64,000 nucleotides of DNA from Promethearchaeota archaeon. GTDB taxonomy: Archaea; Asgardarchaeota; Lokiarchaeia; Sigyniarchaeales; SOKP01. Position 1 is the first letter of the stretch; every line of letters begins with the position of its first letter. Shown piece by piece: positions 53,387-64,000 of the stretch. The stretch covers positions 64,001-128,000 of the forward strand of contig JAHPZJ010000030.1 in the NCBI GenBank assembly GCA_019058245.1, given 5' to 3'. Both the position numbers and the translations under genes were made by a program. The notes beneath the pieces were generated by a model that saw nothing but the letters and a program-made list of their open reading frames with translations, did not search any database and was not told the DNA's origin.

Positions 53387-54124
53387 TTACAATCCTGGAA
53401 TCTCTGTTCGTTTGTGAAGGGTGTCCAAACCTTTAGAGATAATTGCTATAGTGATTAGAAATATAATAGCGACAATAATGTAGGTTGTGAGTGATATAAA
53501 CGAATCTGCAACAATAGATTTTGCTTGTCCAAAGAGTTCAGTAGCTCCAATTAATGAAACAACAACAGTATATTTCGGTAAATATGCTGCTTCATTTGAC
53601 CACGCAGGAATTACACGACGTAAAGCTTGTGGTAAAATTATATGACGAATTCCCGCTACACGCGACATACCTATCGATTGAGCAGCCATTAGTTGCCCGG
53701 CACCAATAGACATTATTGAACTACGCAAATATTCAGCTTGATAAGCTGCACTATTAAGACTTAAGGCAATGATTCCAAATAAAATTCGGTGATTTAAGAA
53801 AATAAAAGTTATATTTTTATCAAATATGCTAAATCTAGCTAACACGTTCCATGTTCCAACTGGTATATTTAATCCATAAAATATAAAGAATAATTGTGCA
53901 ATTAAAGGAGTACCTCGTATAAACTCAATATATCCTCCGGATACTCTTGAAAGTATTCTACCTCCATATTGCCGGAAAAGAGAAAGTAAAAGTCCTAAGA
54001 AGAATCCTATCATAAGTGCCCATACATAAAGCCACATTGTAGTAAGAAAACCAGATAAGATTCGGTCCCAGTATCCTAATATAGTGAAAATTTCCCCTAT
54101 TGGATTGTTTTGTTGAAAAATCAT
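53387..54124 (-). CDS. Polar amino-acid ABC transporter permease
   Basis: RGTPLIAQLF, SAAYQAEYLRSSI, GQLMAAQSIGM, ILPQALRR. Confidence 0.93.
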   Translation of the reverse strand: MIFQQNNPIGEIFTILGYWDRILSGFLTTMWLYVWALMIGFFLGLLLSLFRQYGGRILSRVSGGYIEFIRGTPLIAQLFFIFYGLNIPVGTWNVLARFSIFDKNITFIFLNHRILFGIIALSLNSAAYQAEYLRSSIMSIGAGQLMAAQSIGMSRVAGIRHIILPQALRRVIPAWSNEAAYLPKYTVVVSLIGATELFGQAKSIVADSFISLTTYIIVAIIFLITIAIISKGLDTLHKRTEIPGL

Positions 54125-54900
54125 TATTTTTCCTCCTCTTCTAATAAGTCTATCATTTGTTCATGAGTCCCATATAATACTTCAAGCTGTTTTAGAAATT
54201 TTCTTACACGTTCAGATTCTGGTTTCATGAAGAAATGTTTAGGTGTACCACGTTCAATAACTGCACCTTCACTAAGAAAGATCATTTCCGTCGCTACAGC
54301 TTTAGCAAATCCCATTTCATGGGTTACGACAACCATTGTTGTGCCTGCTTTAGCGATGTCTAACATAACTTGAAGTACTTCACCTATTAGTTCAGGATCT
54401 AAAGCAGAGGTAGGTTCATCAAATAAAATTATATCTGGTTCCATGGATAGAGCTCGAGCGATTCCTACTCTTTGTTGTTGACCTCCAGATAGCTGAGCAG
54501 GATAATGGTCTGCCCATTCTGCCATTTTAACACGTTCTAGAGCTTCAAGAGCTTTTTCTCTAGCTTCTTCCTTGGAAAATCCTTTAACTCGACGAAGTCC
54601 AATACTTACATTATCAATTGCTTTAAGATGGGCGAATAAATTGAAATGTTGAAATACCATCCCTATTCGGGTCCGGATTTCGTTTAGGTTAACCCCAGAT
54701 GCCGTAATATTTTTCCCGTGAAGAAAGATTTCACCTTTATCTGGTGGATTTAACATGTTAATACATCGAAGTAATGTACTTTTACCAGAACCGCTTGGTC
54801 CAAATATAACCTTTACTTCTTTTTCAGCTAATTCAAAGGAAACTCCTTTAAGTACTTGTAAGTCTTCATACGATTTCCACACATTATTCACGCTTAACAC
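54124..54900 (-). CDS. Polar amino-acid ABC transporter ATPase (GlnQ/ArtP-like)
   Basis: GPSGSGKST, MVFQHFNLF, LSGGQQQRV, FDEPTSALDPEL, VTHEMGFA. Confidence 0.95.
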   Translation of the reverse strand: MLSVNNVWKSYEDLQVLKGVSFELAEKEVKVIFGPSGSGKSTLLRCINMLNPPDKGEIFLHGKNITASGVNLNEIRTRIGMVFQHFNLFAHLKAIDNVSIGLRRVKGFSKEEAREKALEALERVKMAEWADHYPAQLSGGQQQRVGIARALSMEPDIILFDEPTSALDPELIGEVLQVMLDIAKAGTTMVVVTHEMGFAKAVATEMIFLSEGAVIERGTPKHFFMKPESERVRKFLKQLEVLYGTHEQMIDLLEEEEK

Positions 54901-54923
54901 TGGTTCGTATTTAACCTCTATCC

Positions 54924-55610
54924 TTAACCACCCCCCATTCCTAATTTTTTAAGTTTCTTGGTTTGGTGTTCACCAAATAATTTTGTTATCGGATATGTCA
55001 ATAAAAAATAGAGAATTGCTAGTACACCAATAGAAACTGTCCAAAATCCTCGAAAGGCATATGAAAAATTATATGCAGCTCTGGTCAACTCGACAATTCC
55101 AACTGCATAAGCAAAGGAAGAATCCTTAATGACTACTGAATACTCATTGGACCAACTAGGCATAGCTAGTCTTAATGCTTGGGGTAGAACAACGTGTCGA
55201 AAAGTTTGAAGCCCACTCATCCCCAAAGCACGTGCAGCTTCAATCTGTCCTGGATTTACAGATAAAATAGCACCACGAAAAATTTGAGATTGATATGCCC
55301 CACTTCGAAGTCCGAGTGCAAAAATTATACTTGCTAAAGGTCTTTGAAGAGGATCTACATACCAGAATAACTCTGGAACTCCAAATGCAAATATATAAAT
55401 TAGCACTAGAATAGGAATACCTCGGAAAATCTTCTCATAGCCGCTTGCTAACCAATTAAGCTCTTTCCCTGCATAAACACGCATGAGAGCTAATATAATA
55501 CCTAAAACAAATCCAATTAATAAGCCCAGTACTGTCATAAGCAATGTTTGGGCTAATCCCTTTGTGACAATATAAATTAAAATGTCAGCTAGGTCCGGCA
55601 TATTACTCAT
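54924..55610 (-). CDS. Polar amino-acid ABC transporter permease
   Basis: FRGIP, GAYQSQIFRGAI, GQIEAARALGM, LPQALR, KDSS. Confidence 0.93.
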   Translation of the reverse strand: MSNMPDLADILIYIVTKGLAQTLLMTVLGLLIGFVLGIILALMRVYAGKELNWLASGYEKIFRGIPILVLIYIFAFGVPELFWYVDPLQRPLASIIFALGLRSGAYQSQIFRGAILSVNPGQIEAARALGMSGLQTFRHVVLPQALRLAMPSWSNEYSVVIKDSSFAYAVGIVELTRAAYNFSYAFRGFWTVSIGVLAILYFLLTYPITKLFGEHQTKKLKKLGMGGG

Positions 55611-55617
55611 CCTTTAA

Positions 55618-56439
55618 TTAACCAAACCATTCATCCATTAAATCAAATATTGATCCATCCTGATAACTGTCAAAAATAACTTGATTCATAGTATACAATA
55701 GTTTTGGTTCCCCCAGCCTAGTCCATAAAGCAAGAGGTTCCGTTCCTGTACTATATATTATCTTTATATCGTATGTATTTGCCCAAGCTGTAAAAACTGG
55801 CTCATCTACATATGCAAGCTGTATAGCTCCACTATCTAATGCTAACATTAGATCATTTGCATTATCATATACTAATAAATCAGCCCCTACAGTCATATCT
55901 AAACCATCGGGACCTAGCTCCTCATACATAACAGTTCCAGTTTGAACACCAACAGTATAATCTTCGAGATCGTTTATAGTTGTTATTGTGATTCCTGACG
56001 CATTAGGAGCAACTACAGCTTGACTCACAGTAATATACGTAATGGATGGTGCAAGATTTTCTGCTCGTTCTTCTGTATATGTCATAGCGGCGGCAATCAT
56101 ATCTATTGTTCCTGCTCTACAAGCAGCAATCAGAGAATCAAAGGGTATATTCTGCATCACAAGGTCAACACCTATTTCGTCTGCAATCATCTCCGCTACA
56201 TCTATATCAAAGCCTACAATAAGTCCTTCAGGATAAGTTAAATTTTCAAAAGGCGGATAATCTGCACTTGTTCCCACAATTAGTTCTCCTCGAGCAACAA
56301 TTGTATCAAGTAATGGAGTACGAGCAGCCTCTGGAATAGGTGAAGGTATAAACCATCCACCAATTAATCCAACTCCAAAACCAACTATAATTGCTATTAT
56401 TGCAATTTCTCTTCTTATTACTGGTGATTCTCTACTCAT
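55618..56439 (-). CDS. Polar amino-acid ABC substrate-binding protein (family 3) with an N-terminal membrane anchor
   Basis: VGTSADYPPFE, GFDIDVA, FDSLI, MTYTEER, VGVQTGT. Confidence 0.93.
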   Translation of the reverse strand: MSRESPVIRREIAIIAIIVGFGVGLIGGWFIPSPIPEAARTPLLDTIVARGELIVGTSADYPPFENLTYPEGLIVGFDIDVAEMIADEIGVDLVMQNIPFDSLIAACRAGTIDMIAAAMTYTEERAENLAPSITYITVSQAVVAPNASGITITTINDLEDYTVGVQTGTVMYEELGPDGLDMTVGADLLVYDNANDLMLALDSGAIQLAYVDEPVFTAWANTYDIKIIYSTGTEPLALWTRLGEPKLLYTMNQVIFDSYQDGSIFDLMDEWFG

Positions 56440-56844: not shown

Positions 56845-58329
56845 ATGAGAAAAAATTTATATAGGATAGGATTAGATATTCCTCTCAACAATGATGCGCT
56901 TAAGTTTATCTCATCTTTAAAAGAAGATTTTTGGATTGTTGAGGAAGATATAATTGGTACTCAAGTCCATAATATTATGCTTTTTGAGCAAAAAATCCTT
57001 GATGAAACTGAGATAAGGAAAATCTTATTTGCCCTTGAGCAAATAAAAAATAAGATTAAGAGTAATAAAATTGAGATAGATGATAGTTTTGAAGATATAC
57101 ATCCATTTATAGAAAAAAGTGTAATTGATACAATTGGGATTGAAATTGGAGGTAAATTACATACTGGTAGATCTAGAAATGATCAAGTATCAGTTGATTT
57201 AAGACTAAAAATCAGAAAGGAGTTAAATAAGATTTCTGAAGGATTATTTGCTCTCATTGATATTTTACTTAATCTTTCTAAAAATAACATAAGTTCATAT
57301 CTGCCATTATATACTCATTTACAAAGAGGACAATTAGGGGTTTTTTCTCATTATATCAATAATTATATTGCTCAGTTTTTAAGAACTCTAGAAAGAATAG
57401 AAGAAATTTATAATAGAGTTAATAAGAATCCACTCGGAGCATGTGCAATAGGAGGAACAAGTATTAATATCAATAGGAATAGGACATCAGAATTACTAGG
57501 ATTTGATGGATTAGTTTATAACTCTATTGATGCTATAAGTTCAAGAGATTATATTTATGAAACATTAATGGTTTTTTCTTTACTAGCTATCCAATTTTCG
57601 AGAATTGCTGAAGATTTAATAATTTGGGCGACTAAAGAATTTAACTTCATAGAATTAGCTGATGAATACTGTTCTGTATCAAGTGTTATGCCACAAAAAA
57701 AAAATCCAGATACTGTAGAATTAATAAGGAGCAGAAGTTCAAAAGTAGTTTCAAACTTATTTAGTACAGCAATGATTATTAAAGCTATTCCAACAGGTTA
57801 CTTTAAAGATTTCCAAGATTTAAAGAAGAAATTGATAAGTTCGATTAATATAATACTTTCAATAATTACAATGTTTAAAGGTATATTTTCAACAATATCC
57901 ATTAATAAAGACAATATGCGACACGCTATTGATGATAGTTTTATTCTTGCTTTAGATTTAGCTGAACTATTAGTACAAGACTATAACATCCCTTTTAGAC
58001 AATCGCATGAAATTGTTGCATTACTAGTAAAGAATTTAGAAAAGCCAGAAGATATGTTAAATAGAGAAAAAATTGAGAAATCAATTTTCAATGTAATAAA
58101 AAAGGAAATAAATTTATCAGAGAAAGTAATTCAAACAATAAAAAATTTGGATCTTTGTTTAGAAAGAAGAATTAGTCAAGGTTCTCCATCTGGAAAAGAG
58201 GTAAAACTTAATATTGATAAACTAGGAAAATGGAAAGATTCATTGTACACTTTATTTTTAAACAGAATAGAAAAAGTAAAAAATGCTAAAGTTCTAAGAA
58301 ATAGACTTATTGAGAAATTAATCTCATGA
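56845..58329 (+). CDS. argH: Argininosuccinate lyase
   Basis: EDIH, LHTGRSRNDQV, YTHLQ, PLGACA, SSVMPQKKNPD, PFRQSHEIV. Confidence 0.95.
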   Translation: MRKNLYRIGLDIPLNNDALKFISSLKEDFWIVEEDIIGTQVHNIMLFEQKILDETEIRKILFALEQIKNKIKSNKIEIDDSFEDIHPFIEKSVIDTIGIEIGGKLHTGRSRNDQVSVDLRLKIRKELNKISEGLFALIDILLNLSKNNISSYLPLYTHLQRGQLGVFSHYINNYIAQFLRTLERIEEIYNRVNKNPLGACAIGGTSININRNRTSELLGFDGLVYNSIDAISSRDYIYETLMVFSLLAIQFSRIAEDLIIWATKEFNFIELADEYCSVSSVMPQKKNPDTVELIRSRSSKVVSNLFSTAMIIKAIPTGYFKDFQDLKKKLISSINIILSIITMFKGIFSTISINKDNMRHAIDDSFILALDLAELLVQDYNIPFRQSHEIVALLVKNLEKPEDMLNREKIEKSIFNVIKKEINLSEKVIQTIKNLDLCLERRISQGSPSGKEVKLNIDKLGKWKDSLYTLFLNRIEKVKNAKVLRNRLIEKLIS

Positions 58330-58419: not shown

Positions 58420-58434
58420 TAAACTTTTTAAATA
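58420..58434 (+). promoter_or_regulatory. Putative BRE/TATA promoter of the arg leader transcript
   Basis: AAAC-TTTTTAAATA; archaeal spacing would put the TSS near 58459, at the start of the structured leader. The AT-rich background lowers confidence. Confidence 0.4.
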
Positions 58435-58504
58435 GCGCTTCCTATTATAAAATTATTAATAATTTTGTGTTGGTGTTAAAAGTTTGATTTCACTTGATCT
58501 TAAT

Positions 58505-58591
58505 ATGAATTATGAAATTGATAAAATTCAATTTCTGAGAACACCATACAAATTAAATCTGGCACGTCGCCGTCGTCTGCTAATTTATTAA
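58505..58591 (+). CDS. Putative arginine-sensing leader peptide (28 aa, MNYEIDKIQFLRTPYKLNLARRRRLLIY)
   Basis: ATG 58505 to TAA 58591; CGT-CGC-CGT-CGT at 58565-58576; ends 112 nt upstream of argJ. Confidence 0.8.
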   Translation: MNYEIDKIQFLRTPYKLNLARRRRLLIY

Positions 58592-58661
58592 TAAATATAA
58601 GAATTGAAGTATAATTCTTATTTCTTCACTTCTTCAAATTTATTATTTTTATAATTTTTTT
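58589..58661 (+). terminator. Putative attenuator: hairpin ATAAGAATT/AATTCTTAT followed by pyrimidine- and U-rich tracts
   Basis: Perfect 9-bp inverted repeat 58597-58605/58613-58621, then TTCTTCACTTCTTC and TTATTATTTTTATAATTTTTTT. Confidence 0.55.
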
Positions 58662-58703
58662 AAAATATTAATTGATACAAAAATTTTTAATGGTTTATAA
58701 GAA

Positions 58704-59945
58704 ATGGAAAAAAAGAATGCAGGAATAAAGAAAATTAATGGAGGAATTACAAGTCCAAAAGGATATCATGCTACTGGAAGTCATATAGGGATAAAAGAAT
58801 GCAAAAAAGATTTAGCTATAGTATATAGTGATGTTCCAGCCAAAGCAGTAGGTGTCTTTACTACAAATTTATTAAAAGCATCTTCAGTTTTATGGAATCA
58901 GAATCTTATTAAAAATCACAATATGATACAAGGTATAGTTGTTAATAGTGGAAATGCTAACGTTTGTACAGGAGAAATAGGGGATAAACATACAGAAATG
59001 ATGGCTGCTGAGTTAGCTTCTTGTTTGGGATTTAATAAAAATCAAGTAATAGTTGCTTCTACAGGGGTTATTGGAAAACTTCTTCCAATTGAAATTATAA
59101 TTAAGGGTATTAAAAATACTTGTAAAACCCTAGGAATTACTGAAAATGATGCTAGATTGGCTGCTGAAGCAATAATAACGACAGATACACACCCAAAAGA
59201 GATCTCGGTTGAATTTATTATCGATAATAAGAAAATTAGAATTGGAGGTATGGCTAAGGGTTCTGGAATGATTCATCCAAATATGGCAACTATGCTTTCA
59301 TTTATTTCAACGGATATAAATATTTCAAGAGAATTATTGGAAAAAGCTTTAAAAGAAAGCATTGAAGAATCATATAATATGATCTCTGTAGATGGTGATA
59401 CAAGTACTAGTGATTCAGTAATTCTTTTGGCTAATGGAATGAGTAATAACTCAGAAATCTTGGATGAGGGTGAAGATTATCTCACTTTTAAACAAGCTCT
59501 TCACTATGTAAATTTATATTTAGCTCAAGAAATTGTAAGAGATGGAGAAGGAGCAAATAAATTTATTACAGTCCATGTTAAAGGAGCTGCATCAAAGCAA
59601 GATGCAAAGATCTTAAGTAAATCTGTTATAACCTCAAATTTAGTTAAAACCGCATTCTTTGGAGAAGATGCAAATTGGGGTAGAATTATTTGTGCTATGG
59701 GATATTCTGGAGCTAATTTTGATCCTTCAAAAGTTTCAATAAAGTATTTAAATAGTGGTAATTCAATTGAGGTTATGAAAGATGGTATGTCTTTAGAATT
59801 TGATGAAGATTTAGCATTAAAAATATTAAAAGAAAAAGAAATTATTGTAGAATTAATTTTAAAAGATGGAGAAAGTGAGGCAATCGCATGGGGATGTGAT
59901 TTAAGTTATGATTATGTCCGAATTAATGGTTCTTATAGAACCTGA
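58704..59945 (+). CDS. argJ: Bifunctional glutamate N-acetyltransferase/ornithine acetyltransferase
   Basis: GVFTTN, NSGNANVCTG, ASTGVIG, TTDT, AKGSGMIHPNMATML (autocleavage site), VDGDTSTSD, DGEGA, DANWGR. Confidence 0.97.
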   Translation: MEKKNAGIKKINGGITSPKGYHATGSHIGIKECKKDLAIVYSDVPAKAVGVFTTNLLKASSVLWNQNLIKNHNMIQGIVVNSGNANVCTGEIGDKHTEMMAAELASCLGFNKNQVIVASTGVIGKLLPIEIIIKGIKNTCKTLGITENDARLAAEAIITTDTHPKEISVEFIIDNKKIRIGGMAKGSGMIHPNMATMLSFISTDINISRELLEKALKESIEESYNMISVDGDTSTSDSVILLANGMSNNSEILDEGEDYLTFKQALHYVNLYLAQEIVRDGEGANKFITVHVKGAASKQDAKILSKSVITSNLVKTAFFGEDANWGRIICAMGYSGANFDPSKVSIKYLNSGNSIEVMKDGMSLEFDEDLALKILKEKEIIVELILKDGESEAIAWGCDLSYDYVRINGSYRT

Positions 59946-59958
59946 AAAGGTGGAAAAA

Positions 59959-60819
59959 ATGATTGAAAATATTGGAAAAGCAAAAATTTTGATAGAAGCA
60001 ATAAAATACATCAGAGCTTTTTACAGAAAAACTTTTGTTATTAAATATGGGGGTAGTGCAATGGTAAAACCTGAGCTTAAAAAGAGTTTTATTGAAGACC
60101 TCATTTTCCTCAATTTCGTAGGAATAAATGTAATAGTTGTGCATGGGGGTGGAGCTTCAATTAACACCTTATTAGACAAATTAAAAATCGAGTCAAAATT
60201 TTTTAATGGCCTTAGAATTACCGATGAAGAAACAATGGATGTTGTTGAGATGGTATTAGCTGGTAAAATAAATAAGGGAATAGTAAATGATATTCAAACT
60301 CAAGGAAGTAATGCAATAGGACTAAGTGGGAAAGATAGCAATTTACTGAAGGTCAAGAAAAAAATGGTTGAAGGAGAGGATTTAGGGTTTGTTGGCGAGG
60401 TAACTGAAGTAAATACTCAATTTTTAAAAGGGATACTAAAAAATTCTTTAATTCCTGTTATTGCTCCAATAGGTTCAGATCATATAGGAAATACATATAA
60501 TATCAATGCTGATGAAGTGGCACTAGCCATTTCAAAAGCATTAAATGTAGAAAAGTTAATCTATATAACTGACGTTTTAGGAGTACTTCTTGATGTAAAT
60601 GATAAGAATTCTCTAATATCAGAATTGAGGACTGAACAAGCTTTATCTTATATTAGAGAAGGTAAAATTACAGAAGGGATGATTCCAAAAGTAAGAAGTT
60701 GTATAGAAGCAGTAAATAGTGATGTAAAAGCAGTACATATTATAGATGGTAGAATTGAACATAGTCTTTTACTTGAAATTTTAACTCCTCAAGGGATTGG
60801 TACAATGTTTAAAAAGTAA
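59959..60819 (+). CDS. argB: Acetylglutamate kinase
   Basis: VIKYGGSAM, VHGGG, GLRITD, GLSGKD, NINAD, GMIPK, HIIDGR; ATG at 59959 follows an AGGTGG RBS and avoids overlap with argJ. Confidence 0.96.
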   Translation: MIENIGKAKILIEAIKYIRAFYRKTFVIKYGGSAMVKPELKKSFIEDLIFLNFVGINVIVVHGGGASINTLLDKLKIESKFFNGLRITDEETMDVVEMVLAGKINKGIVNDIQTQGSNAIGLSGKDSNLLKVKKKMVEGEDLGFVGEVTEVNTQFLKGILKNSLIPVIAPIGSDHIGNTYNINADEVALAISKALNVEKLIYITDVLGVLLDVNDKNSLISELRTEQALSYIREGKITEGMIPKVRSCIEAVNSDVKAVHIIDGRIEHSLLLEILTPQGIGTMFKK

Positions 60820-60863
60820 AATTATATAAAAAAAGTATAGAAATAAAAGAGAGGAAATTAATC

Positions 60864-62066
60864 ATGAGTGATTGGATTGAAAGGGGAACTAAGGTTATAA
60901 TGAACACTTATAAACAGTTTCCCATTGTATTAGAAAAAGGAAATGGCGTTTATCTCTGGGATAGTGAAGGAAAAAAGTACCTTGATTTTGTTGCAGGGAT
61001 AGCTGTAAATGCTTTAGGTTATAATGATTCTGACTATATTCAAGAAATTACTACACAATTAAAAAAAATGCAACATTGTTCAAATTTATACTGGATGATA
61101 CCATCAATAGAATTAGGCGAGATTTTAATTCAAAATAGTTGTTTTGATAAAATATTTTATTGTAATAGTGGAGCTGAAGCTGTTGAAGCCGCAATAAAAT
61201 TGAGTAAGAAGTATGGAAAGAAAGTCCATGGAAATAATTGTAGTAAAATTATTACAATGAAGAGATCGTTTCACGGAAGAACAATGGCAACGATCACTGC
61301 AACAGGTCAGACTAAATATCAAAAGGGATTCGATCCATTAATGCCTGGATTTTCCTATGTTGAATTTAATAACTATAATGAGTTAAAAGAAGCAGTCAAT
61401 GAAGATACCTGTGCTATTATTATAGAACCTATACAGGGAGAAGGAGGAATTCATCCTGCTGAGAAGTCATTTTTAAAAGAAGTACGAGCTCTGTGTGATG
61501 AAAAAGATATTGTACTTGTATTTGATGAAGTTCAATGTGGAATCGGAAGAACTGGCGAATTATTTGCATATCAATTATTTGATGTAAAACCTGATGTAGT
61601 TTCATTAGCAAAAGGTTTAGCTGGAGGTATTCCCATAGGAGCAATGCTGGCAGTTCAGAGTAAAGCGGATGCTTTTCAACCTGGTGATCATGCATCAACG
61701 TTTGGAGGCAATCATTTAGCATGTACAGCAGGTAAGGTAGTACTAAATAAATTATTAAACGGTGGGATTCTTGAAAATGTACGAAAACAAGGGAAATATC
61801 TAAAAGAAAAGTTAATTAATTTAAAGGAAAAATATGCGATGATTAAAGAGGTAAGGGGCTATGGTTTAATGCTCGGTCTTGAACTAAATATTCCTGTCAA
61901 GGATATAATAGAAATATGTATGGAACAAGGTTTACTTATTTTAGGTGCTGGAGAAAACGTAATAAGATTTGTTCCACCGCTGATAATTAACAAAAATGAA
62001 ATTGATGAAGGAGTAACTATCCTTGATGGGGTACTACAACAATTCAAAAATAATAAAGGTTTATAA
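60864..62066 (+). CDS. argD: Acetylornithine aminotransferase
   Basis: YLDFVAGIAVN, NSGAEA, SFHGRT, EPIQGEGG, DEVQCGIGRTG, LAKGLAGG, HASTFGGN. Confidence 0.95.
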   Translation: MSDWIERGTKVIMNTYKQFPIVLEKGNGVYLWDSEGKKYLDFVAGIAVNALGYNDSDYIQEITTQLKKMQHCSNLYWMIPSIELGEILIQNSCFDKIFYCNSGAEAVEAAIKLSKKYGKKVHGNNCSKIITMKRSFHGRTMATITATGQTKYQKGFDPLMPGFSYVEFNNYNELKEAVNEDTCAIIIEPIQGEGGIHPAEKSFLKEVRALCDEKDIVLVFDEVQCGIGRTGELFAYQLFDVKPDVVSLAKGLAGGIPIGAMLAVQSKADAFQPGDHASTFGGNHLACTAGKVVLNKLLNGGILENVRKQGKYLKEKLINLKEKYAMIKEVRGYGLMLGLELNIPVKDIIEICMEQGLLILGAGENVIRFVPPLIINKNEIDEGVTILDGVLQQFKNNKGL

Positions 62067-63112
62067 TGATGATTAGAGCAGGTATAATAGGAGCAACTGG
62101 ATATGTAGGTTCAGATTTAGTTAGAATTTTATATCATCATCCTGAAGTAGAATTAAAATTATTAACTTCTAAAAATCATAAAAATCAAAGTTATAATTCA
62201 GTATATTCAAACTTCAACAAAATATGTGAGATGATATGTGATGAGGATGATCTTGATTCTGCAATAAACCAACTTGATATAATTTTTCTATCATTACCTC
62301 ATGGAGTAACTTCAAGTATATTAACAGATAAGATTTTAAAAAATGTAAAGGTTATTGACCTCAGTGCTGATTTTCGATTAAAGAGTGTAGATGAATATGT
62401 GGAATGGTATAACATTAAACATAGTAATGCTAATCTGTTGAAAAAAGCAGTCTATGGTCTTTCTGAATGGAAAAGAGAACAAATAAAAAATTCAAAATTA
62501 GTTGCTAATCCTGGTTGCTATCCAACTTGTGCTTTATTATGTTTATTACCTCTTATCAAAGAAGGGATTTTAGAAGAAGAACACATAATTATTGATGCAA
62601 AGTCAGGAGTGTCAGGTGCAGGAAGATCTTTAAATCTTGGAACTCATTTCTCAGAAAGTAATGAATCAACTAAGGCATATAACGTTCTCTCTCATCGACA
62701 TACTCCAGAGATCGATCAGGAATTAAGTGAAGTAAATGGAAATGAAATATCAGTTATTTTTACACCCCATCTAATCCCAATGAATCGAGGAATATTATGT
62801 ACTTGTTATGGGATTCTTAAAAAGTCATATAATTATGAAGATATCAAAAAAATATATGAAGATAATTATGAAAATGAATTTTTTATTCGTCTAATGAAGA
62901 AAAATGATTTACCTGAAACGAGATGGGTTAAGGGTTCAAATTATTGTGATATTGGTTTTAGTCTAGATGAAAAAGCTAATAGAATAATTATAGTTGGAGC
63001 AATTGACAATCTAGTTAAGGGTGGAGCAGGACAAGCTGTTCAAAATATGAATTTAATGTTTGATTTAGAAGAGAATATAGGGTTAAAATCAATTCCTATG
63101 TTCCCTGTTTAA
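62066..63112 (+). CDS. argC: N-acetyl-gamma-glutamyl-phosphate reductase
   Basis: IIGATGYVG, LPHG, IDLSADFR, ANPGCYPT, SGVSGAG, HRHTPEI, IDNLVKGGAGQAVQNMN. Confidence 0.97.
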   Translation: MMIRAGIIGATGYVGSDLVRILYHHPEVELKLLTSKNHKNQSYNSVYSNFNKICEMICDEDDLDSAINQLDIIFLSLPHGVTSSILTDKILKNVKVIDLSADFRLKSVDEYVEWYNIKHSNANLLKKAVYGLSEWKREQIKNSKLVANPGCYPTCALLCLLPLIKEGILEEEHIIIDAKSGVSGAGRSLNLGTHFSESNESTKAYNVLSHRHTPEIDQELSEVNGNEISVIFTPHLIPMNRGILCTCYGILKKSYNYEDIKKIYEDNYENEFFIRLMKKNDLPETRWVKGSNYCDIGFSLDEKANRIIIVGAIDNLVKGGAGQAVQNMNLMFDLEENIGLKSIPMFPV

Positions 63113-63160
63113 AGAAAAATAATAATATAATAGGCAATAATAAAAAAAAGTGAGGGATTA

Positions 63161-64000
63161 ATGAATCAATTAGGACCTAAAAAAAATAAATACAATAAAA
63201 TTTTATTGATGTATTCTGGTGGTCTGGATACTTCTTGCATGATAAAATGGTTACAAGATAAATACAGTTCTGAAGTTTATACCTTTACAGCCGATCTCGG
63301 TCAAGAATTCGTAGATCCATCCAGATTTGAGGAAATAGAAGAAAAAGCATATAATTTAGGGGTTAAAAAACATTACACCATTGATTTAAAAGAGAAATTT
63401 GTATGTGATTATCTTTTTCCAACTATTAAAGCAAATGGTTTGTATCAGGGAATATATCCTTTAAGTACGGCAGTAGGAAGACCCTTAATAGCTATTGAAG
63501 CGATAAAAATTGCAAGACAAGAAAAAATTGAAGCAATAGCTCATGGATGCACAGGTAAAGGAAATGATCAAATAAGGTTTAATGTTACAATGAGAGCTTA
63601 TGCTCCTAATATTGAGATATTGCAACCAATAATAGAATGGAATATGGGTAGAGATGAAGAAATTAAATATGCTCAACTCCATGAAATTCCTATTCAAAAA
63701 CAAAACAAAAAATATAGTGTTGATGAGAATCTTTTTGGACGAAGTGTAGAATGTGATGTTTTAGAATATCCAGAAATTGAACCCCCGGAGGATTGTTATT
63801 CTTGGACAGTATCACCAGAAAATGCTCCTGATAATCCGGAATACATTCAAATTCATTTTGAAAAAGGAATGCCAATCCAATTAAATGATAAAAGTTTAAA
63901 TTGTGTTGATTTAATTAGAGAACTTCATAATATTGGTTGTAAACATGGAATTGGTAGAGTTAATCATATGGAAGATCGAGCAATTGGATTAAAATCAAGA
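63161..64000 (+). CDS. argG: Argininosuccinate synthase (3'-partial)
   Basis: ATG at 63161 after GAGG; YSGGLDTS, DLGQ, YPLSTAVGRPLI, AHGCTGKGNDQIRF, YSVDENLFGRSVEC, HGIGR; open to the window end and missing from the ORF track. Confidence 0.96.
   Translation, partial: MNQLGPKKNKYNKILLMYSGGLDTSCMIKWLQDKYSSEVYTFTADLGQEFVDPSRFEEIEEKAYNLGVKKHYTIDLKEKFVCDYLFPTIKANGLYQGIYPLSTAVGRPLIAIEAIKIARQEKIEAIAHGCTGKGNDQIRFNVTMRAYAPNIEILQPIIEWNMGRDEEIKYAQLHEIPIQKQNKKYSVDENLFGRSVECDVLEYPEIEPPEDCYSWTVSPENAPDNPEYIQIHFEKGMPIQLNDKSLNCVDLIRELHNIGCKHGIGRVNHMEDRAIGLKSR

Follow-up and report, generated by a model that had tools for sequence, protein, structure and literature searches.

In leader-peptide attenuators of the trpL type the cognate codons are placed about 12-15 nt before the stop codon, and an arm of a helix begins a few nt past it. 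In tnaC, mgtL and the Rho-dependent leaders of actinobacteria, the position of the ribosome gates a G-poor, pyrimidine-rich tract for a termination factor. The fungal arginine attenuator peptide (AAP; CPA1 and arg-2) is encoded by a uORF on which the ribosome stalls in high arginine by virtue of the peptide sequence, and scanning is thereby blocked. Archaeal terminators are U-rich and do not require a hairpin. Reportedly, Xie and Reeve proposed in 2005 that a Met-Trp mini-ORF affects translation of trpY, a possible archaeal precedent.

TrpY of Methanothermobacter is a repressor (PMC6737238). In Salmonella, the speF leader ORF orf34 relies on two Arg codons to sense arginine (PMC6386406). With respect to termination, a Loki aCPSF1 orthologue terminates at U tracts and functions in Methanococcus (PMC8716108), and FttA binds to U-rich RNA at a distance of 30-36 nt behind the polymerase (PMC11616081). 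Direct evidence that archaea couple transcription and translation is scarce (PMC13681488). For archaea, no leader-peptide attenuator was found described in the literature searched, in which most subscription papers were not covered. The locus described here, from comparison of sequences, is most likely a bacterial-style ribosome gauge of arginine supply that would switch the arg operon in an Asgard archaeon and its relatives.

The arg operon and its homologous loci

The window analyzed is a stretch of 64,000 nt from a Promethearchaeota genome of 3.09 Mb (76% complete). It carries argH (56845..58329, plus strand, TIGR00838) and, 3′ of a 374-nt gap of 20% GC, argJ (58704..59945, plus strand, TIGR00120 above cut-off), then argB, argD, argC and argG (59908..64000, plus strand), with argG continuing beyond the window end. 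The six gene names are supported by NCBIfam. The leader lies within the gap; argH, 5′ of it, is probably transcribed from its own promoter, and argJ is the first gene under putative control. An Arg leader was looked for in the gap 5′ of argH and none was found. The size of the argH-argJ gap and the Arg codons of argJ (AGA six times, CGA once and no other) are as given in the initial annotation, whose assignment to an Asgard-like host agrees with the labels of close ArgJ homologs, Promethearchaeota or Lokiarchaeota.

Two further observations concern arginine genes nearby and elsewhere. An amino-acid ABC transporter cluster (window 53387-56439, minus strand) is divergent from argH; the transporter binding-protein gene also adjoins argH in loci L178 and L179, and may serve to import arginine. 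The ornithine carbamoyltransferase gene is outside the arg operon, beside a carbamate-kinase-like gene (G000 C17:57595-59503).

Upstream DNA was collected by similarity of ArgJ, not of the leader, and extra homologs were obtained by protein search and contig look-ups; a metagenome scan for argJ returned distant bacterial argJ only. The resulting 18 loci, i.e., the window, eight other genomes and nine further contigs, represent one ArgJ clade in Promethearchaeota and are kin to one another, not independent. An argJ of this clade was detected in 5 of the 54 genomes in the genus; the corresponding counts are 9 of 135 for the family and 12 of 154 for the order. The leader is conserved across two genera and metagenomes, in 18 of 18 loci where the argJ of the clade begins an operon; in L194, argJ directly follows argG and the leader region is absent. 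Strong matches to the leader DNA are located solely immediately 5′ of argJ.

A second ArgJ lineage has unrelated ORFs of 22-24 codons, each led by a Shine-Dalgarno (SD) sequence, about 255-180 nt before argJ in L183 (Promethearchaeota) and 218-149 nt before argJ in L193. These encode five and three Arg, respectively, have a helix beside the stop that spans a pyrimidine tract, and may constitute an independent Arg leader. A weaker candidate Arg leader is present in L004.

Start, frame and stop of the leader ORF

A TATA-like box (TTTTTAAA) found by pattern match at 58425..58432 (plus strand) is the predicted promoter of the leader. By the same type of match, a TATA-like box is situated 40-50 nt 5′ of the SD in 13 of the 18 loci. 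Transcription of the leader would start at about 58450-58460, roughly 30 nt before the SD-led ORF. The SD-like sequence (58471..58477, plus strand, with GGTG at 58472-58475) doubles as the 5′ arm of a helix termed P1. GGTG is present in all 18 loci at 8-9 nt ahead of the start codon; genome-wide it clusters 5-11 nt before ATG, and the leader spacing falls within this SD peak.

The ORF extends over 58484..58591 (plus strand) from a TTG start, with 35 codons in the window copy and 27-31 in homologs. An ORF at 58505-58591 had been annotated initially, and this segment does read as 28 codons plus TAA, but the conserved start is TTG 58484 and not ATG 58505. The conserved start column shows TTG in 15 loci and ATG in three. 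The column of ATG 58505 was rejected as a start, as the homologs display ATG (2), TTG (8), AGG (2), ATA, CTG and AAG at this position. The frame is open in 18 of 18 loci, and the remaining two forward frames carry stops in 17 and in all 18 of them. Its length is 31 codons in 14 loci; two others have 30 codons, and L179 has 27, a 12-nt in-frame deletion having removed four codons there. The stop position is fixed among the homologs. The window copy is atypical at 58577-58591, with a 4-nt insertion, one extra Arg codon and a stop shifted 8 nt into the adjacent helix. A minus-strand reading of the CGN run was also rejected, as SD, start and stop are conserved on the plus strand only. The 5′ leader of this amino-acid operon has, in the manner of attenuators, a translation start of its own (SD plus TTG or ATG at fixed spacing).

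Upstream regions of the genome hold 2196 short ORFs, and a single leader, when shuffled, remains open in 7-32% of cases, as might be expected were the frame a chance ORF in AT-rich intergenic DNA. However the sole genomic (CGN)4 precedes an arg operon, the ORF is conserved, and cognate parallels are found elsewhere in the genome. As far as the compared loci can tell, a chance origin is refuted by conservation and can be virtually dismissed.

Arg codons and selection on the ORF

The proposed sensor consists of four tandem Arg codons, CGT CGC CGT CGT (58565..58576, plus strand), within a small GC hairpin. The initial description of this run as a GC-rich patch of rare codons holds: the best 20-nt window at the Arg codons is 75% GC vs 20% for the gap, and CGT, CGC and CGG together make up 67% of leader Arg codons vs 19% genome-wide. 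(CGN)4 is found at this one site only in the 3.09-Mb genome, on either strand, coding or not; about 0.18 sites are expected anywhere in the genome from the CG frequency. Over the 18 loci, 66 of the 144 codons in the last eight positions are Arg, vs 13 of the 390 codons before them. Codon 28 is Arg in 15 of 15 gap-free rows, as CGT, CGC or CGG, and Arg positions are also kept by AGA and AGG besides CGN. A cluster of rare cognate codons near the end of the ORF is thus present, as in trpL-type leaders.

Codons 25-31 display a synonymous (third-position) bias, with values of 0.23, 0.19 and 0.38 by codon position, which is absent from codons 2-24 (0.23, 0.25 and 0.27). The bias is confined to codons 25-31, so selection targets the start, frame, Arg codons and stop, not the peptide; the lack of codon-position bias over codons 2-24 indicates a peptide that is otherwise unselected, again as in the trpL type. 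It had been proposed at the outset that a conserved Arg-run ORF with synonymous variation should be found upstream of argJ in relatives, and it is found in 18 of 18 loci. The core of that proposal, an Arg-codon leader that senses Arg-tRNA, passes this conservation test, and sensing of Arg-tRNA by the ribosome on a translated leader is considered very probable.

The nearly fixed length of the ORF and the conserved appearance of E11, I12, Q16, F17, A20 and P21 could also suggest an arrest peptide of the fungal AAP or SpeFL type, which would bind free arginine or ornithine while still nascent in the exit tunnel. However these residues overlap hairpin A and helix P1, described below, the codons that encode them lie in the segment without synonymous bias, four codons are missing in L179, and the N-terminal halves of L092 and L180 are divergent. 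A conserved peptide under protein-level selection, as in AAP, SpeFL and TnaC, is not seen, and an arrest peptide is extremely unlikely.

RNA helices and pyrimidine tracts

The leader helices are AU-rich, and MAFFT and RNAalifold applied to all 18 rows recovered only P1. RNAalifold lost the downstream helix through register shifts, thus per-sequence folds were used. The 3′ arm of P1 (58540..58546, plus strand) pairs with the SD and joins it to codons 19-21. By per-sequence pairing, a 4-bp core is present in 17 of the 18 loci, one with a G-U pair, and a fifth pair appears as U-G, C-G or U-A with pairing always kept. The apparent conservation of Ala-Pro is attributed to the P1 pairing of codons 19-21. 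The folding suggests that closure of P1 over the SD would bar a second ribosome, with roughly single-round loading.

Hairpin A (58514..58535, plus strand) is within the ORF at codons 11-17 and accounts for the conservation of these codons. RNAalifold gives it 8 bp with a G-U wobble, and it is dispensable. As a possible operator its palindrome was rejected: it has no second copy in the genome, does not occur ahead of argH and has been lost by deletion from L179. The hairpin formed by the Arg codons folds with -4 to -10 kcal/mol at every locus, and this GC hairpin is possibly a pause element.

The dual use of these sequences, GGTG as helix arm and Arg codons as hairpin, together with a conservation of leader nucleotides that in five comparisons out of six is higher than at the third positions of argJ (0.28-0.33 vs 0.40-0.44), would be compatible with an untranslated element, i.e., a structured RNA or a DNA operator (palindrome 58514-58535) that a protein would recognize and beside which the ORF would be incidental. 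Such an element does not account for the interchange of TTG and ATG at fixed spacing, the deletion that keeps the frame, the fixed stop, or the retention of Arg through AGA and AGG as well as CGN. In addition, Rfam covariance models gave 0 matches at E <= 1, cognate-codon leaders are found at four other operons, and a search for ArgR (PF01316) found nothing either here, in a genome 76% complete, or in five operon-bearing relatives of 98-100% completeness; the locus is assigned neither to the T-boxes, riboswitches or other Rfam leaders nor to an ArgR/AhrC regulon. An untranslated element is very unlikely.

A helix adjacent to the stop codon (58589..58645, plus strand) pairs a purine-rich arm with a pyrimidine tract, and is proposed as an anti-terminator mask. 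A conserved U tract follows (58646..58661, plus strand), a candidate archaeal terminator signal; the initial annotation was correct in placing a hairpin and then a U tract at the stop codon. In the window copy the helix has -10.9 kcal/mol and a z-score of -2.9. The z-score is <= -2 against dinucleotide shuffles in 13 of the 18 loci, and in L092, L180, L182 and L186 the helix is rebuilt from differing, compensated sequence. It begins 0-12 nt past the homologous stop in all loci. Its pyrimidine side takes in the beginning of a U tract and includes a C/U-rich, G-free tract (58615..58635, plus strand) that is conserved in alignments and, by inference from PMC8716108 and PMC11616081, is a candidate loading site for aCPSF1/FttA. 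An aCPSF1 is present in the genome (profile above cut-off), and the leader thus has both the pyrimidine-rich, G-poor tract (58615-58661) and the termination factor of a factor-dependent leader.

A second, competing helix between the last codons with the stop and the purine arm surpasses shuffled sequences in 6 of the 18 loci (clear in L180, L088, L089, L090, L091 and L184) and is borderline in five more. In the window copy, the least clear of all, it is weak (-2.7 kcal/mol), weakened by the same 4-nt insertion that displaces the stop. Pairing of the U tract with the purines 3′ of it, as a 3:4 hairpin, was rejected, since it is present in some loci and not conserved.

Proposed mechanism

In the proposed mechanism the first ribosome would load co-transcriptionally, and P1 would then close over the SD. 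With scarce Arg-tRNA the ribosome would wait at the rare CGN codons, which precede the homologous stop by 12 nt (the stop of the window copy by 24 nt). A ribosome at codon 28 would cover the competing stop region and leave the purine arm available for pairing with the C/U and U tracts, which would then be hidden from aCPSF1/FttA and from the polymerase, and transcription would proceed into argJ. With plentiful Arg, the ribosome would reach the stop and cover the start of the purine arm, or would depart, whereupon the stop region would pair with the purine arm instead. The unmasked U-rich RNA would be single-stranded, and transcription would end early near 58630-58675. Translation, stalling, termination and the polarity of the switch are what we infer here.

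The helix is assigned to the ON state because stalling would free its arm and the operon is biosynthetic. Archaeal terminators are U-rich and do not depend on a hairpin, and for this reason, and from PMC8716108 and PMC11616081, the helix is read as a mask over the terminator. The geometry thus suggests that the stop-adjacent helix fits an anti-terminator better than a terminator. The modeled exposure of the pyrimidine tract is 0.51 with a stalled ribosome vs 0.58-0.62 with a ribosome at the stop, a modest change that is in part a trivial consequence of removing the arm. In equilibrium folding the masking helix wins in both ribosome states, thus the switch would have to be kinetic. A termination switch of argJBDCG by the masking helix and aCPSF1 is given a slightly better than even chance.

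The initial annotation had the hairpin itself as the termination signal, i.e., hairpin and U tract terminate after the ribosome finishes, and an Arg stall prevents the hairpin. The topology, a hairpin and then U6-8, agrees with this, and archaeal termination can be enhanced by hairpins (PMC13675443). However the helix starts at the stop, and a ribosome at codons 28-30 extends no further than the first few nt of its arm. A ribosome at the stop covers more; a terminating ribosome would block the hairpin and an Arg-stalled ribosome would free it, which is the wrong sign for a biosynthetic operon. Moreover the GC-rich stem of a terminator is absent, no conserved helix is found that could serve as antiterminator to such a hairpin, and a scan for canonical intrinsic terminators gave 0 sites. 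A terminating hairpin is quite unlikely.

The same Arg sensor might have as its output mRNA cleavage or stability, or initiation of argJ translation. Since aCPSF1 is a ribonuclease, the sequence cannot separate termination from decay, and speF offers a precedent in which a ribosome pause at two Arg codons leads to the selection of an RNase G-resistant fold (PMC6386406). On the other hand, the layout of TATA box, leader and U tract resembles a short transcription unit, and the consensus fold leaves the ribosome-binding region of argJ unpaired. Outputs of this type are unlikely, though less so than a terminating hairpin.

Cognate leaders at other operons

The search for analogous leaders before other biosynthetic operons, suggested initially, found His, Leu, Trp and Ile leaders in the genome. 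A His-rich leader (G000 C30:141160-141324, minus strand), with four His in the last seven codons, is directly before the his operon. A Leu-rich leader (G000 C10:40915-41016, plus strand), with a run of six Leu, is directly before leuACDB, and a Trp-rich leader (G000 C6:120951-121004, minus strand), with three Trp in five codons, is directly before the trp operon. Each of these ends in its cognate residue and has a helix near the stop, which starts 4-6 nt past the stop in the His and Leu leaders. The Ile leader (G000 C31:10547-10621, minus strand) has 24 codons, four terminal Ile, an SD and a stop-adjacent helix, and precedes an IleRS-like gene and then a CysRS-like gene. Patterns as strong as those of Arg, His, Leu and Trp are found in 3, 1, 1 and 2 of 1547 upstream regions, respectively, with thresholds that were set after the data were seen. 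No Phe-rich ORF was seen before pheS, where the region is partly N.

A second Trp-rich leader (G000 C6, about 112169-112246, minus strand) precedes a gene of 385 aa just 3′ of the trp operon, and its end resembles the trpD leader. The His and Leu leaders share an in-ORF SD-like GAGAGGT about 14-17 codons before the stop.

A Lokiarchaeia suite of Arg, His, Leu, Trp and Ile leaders, in which a stop-adjacent helix hides U-rich RNA from the CPSF73-like aCPSF1, is advanced tentatively, at somewhat less than an even chance. If true, attenuation would have been rebuilt on the archaeal cleavage-based terminator and added to an arg operon of bacterial type once this had arrived, and the suite would be functional evidence that the closest relatives of eukaryotes couple transcription and translation.

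Origin and significance

A quick unrooted tree of query-similar sequences, a sample without the canonical archaeal ArgJ, places the leader-bearing ArgJ clade among Bacillota, next to the Tissierellales-type and apart from Melainabacteria. From this placement and its patchy presence, the operon may have been transferred; the sequences fit an operon that acquired a host-style leader. Bacillota loci L034, L039, L042, L053, L065, L079 and L082 have ARG-box-like palindromes before the first arg gene and no leaders.

An archaeal example would extend leader-peptide attenuation to another domain and to arginine biosynthesis, and would bear on the origins of eukaryotic uORF control and of CPSF73-type premature termination. 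A 200-nt leader with start, stall site, helix and U tract would also be a portable reporter for ribosome gating of aCPSF1/FttA.

Comparison with known systems

The Methanothermobacter trpY/trpE system is similar in that an archaeal amino-acid operon is controlled, but there a DNA-binding repressor dominates, and the ORF, reportedly of two codons, differs from a leader that has many codons and alternative helices. In the fungal AAP a uORF likewise governs arginine-synthesis genes according to arginine; in contrast, the archaeal peptide is not conserved and the stall would come at low arginine.

The initial annotation had considered bacterial arg genes to be typically under ArgR or T-box control. 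Arg-codon leaders exist, however, in Salmonella speF and in Melainabacteria. In the latter, three or four CGN codons are found in leaders of 20-28 codons before argC (L027, L030, L036, L040, L043, L047, L084, L017, L061, L018, L010 and L012), which are about 90-240 nt before argC and are followed by GC-rich hairpin-U terminators. No paper on these was found, and from their sequences they look like classical arginine attenuators. They differ from the archaeal leader in their canonical terminators, share no sequence with it, and have their ArgJ elsewhere in the tree.

The speF leader ORF orf34/SpeFL (PMC6386406) has 34 codons, consecutive Arg codons that alter RNA folding, and factor-dependent termination, all of which resemble the archaeal leader. 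It differs in its target, ornithine decarboxylase, in its use of Rho and RNase G and in the conservation of its peptide, and there is no evident sequence relationship between the two. The gating logic of tnaC, mgtL and the Rho-dependent leaders is the same as that proposed here, except that the archaeal factor would be the ribonuclease aCPSF1/FttA, acting via Spt4/5, and not Rho.

With trpL-type leaders (E. coli trpL, hisL, leuL, thrL and pheL; Deinococcus, PMC4007540) the archaeal leader shares a short SD-led ORF before a biosynthetic operon, the geometry of codon cluster and helix arm, and a peptide that is otherwise unconstrained. It differs from them in its amino acid, arginine, in its archaeal host, in its TTG start and in a helix that sequesters the SD. 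It also is without the GC-rich 3:4 intrinsic terminator, the signal appearing to be an unpaired U/C tract, and because this terminator feature fails it is not filed as a classical attenuator. By analogy with the described systems, the sensing half is trpL-like and the output is likely similar to that of tnaC and speF.
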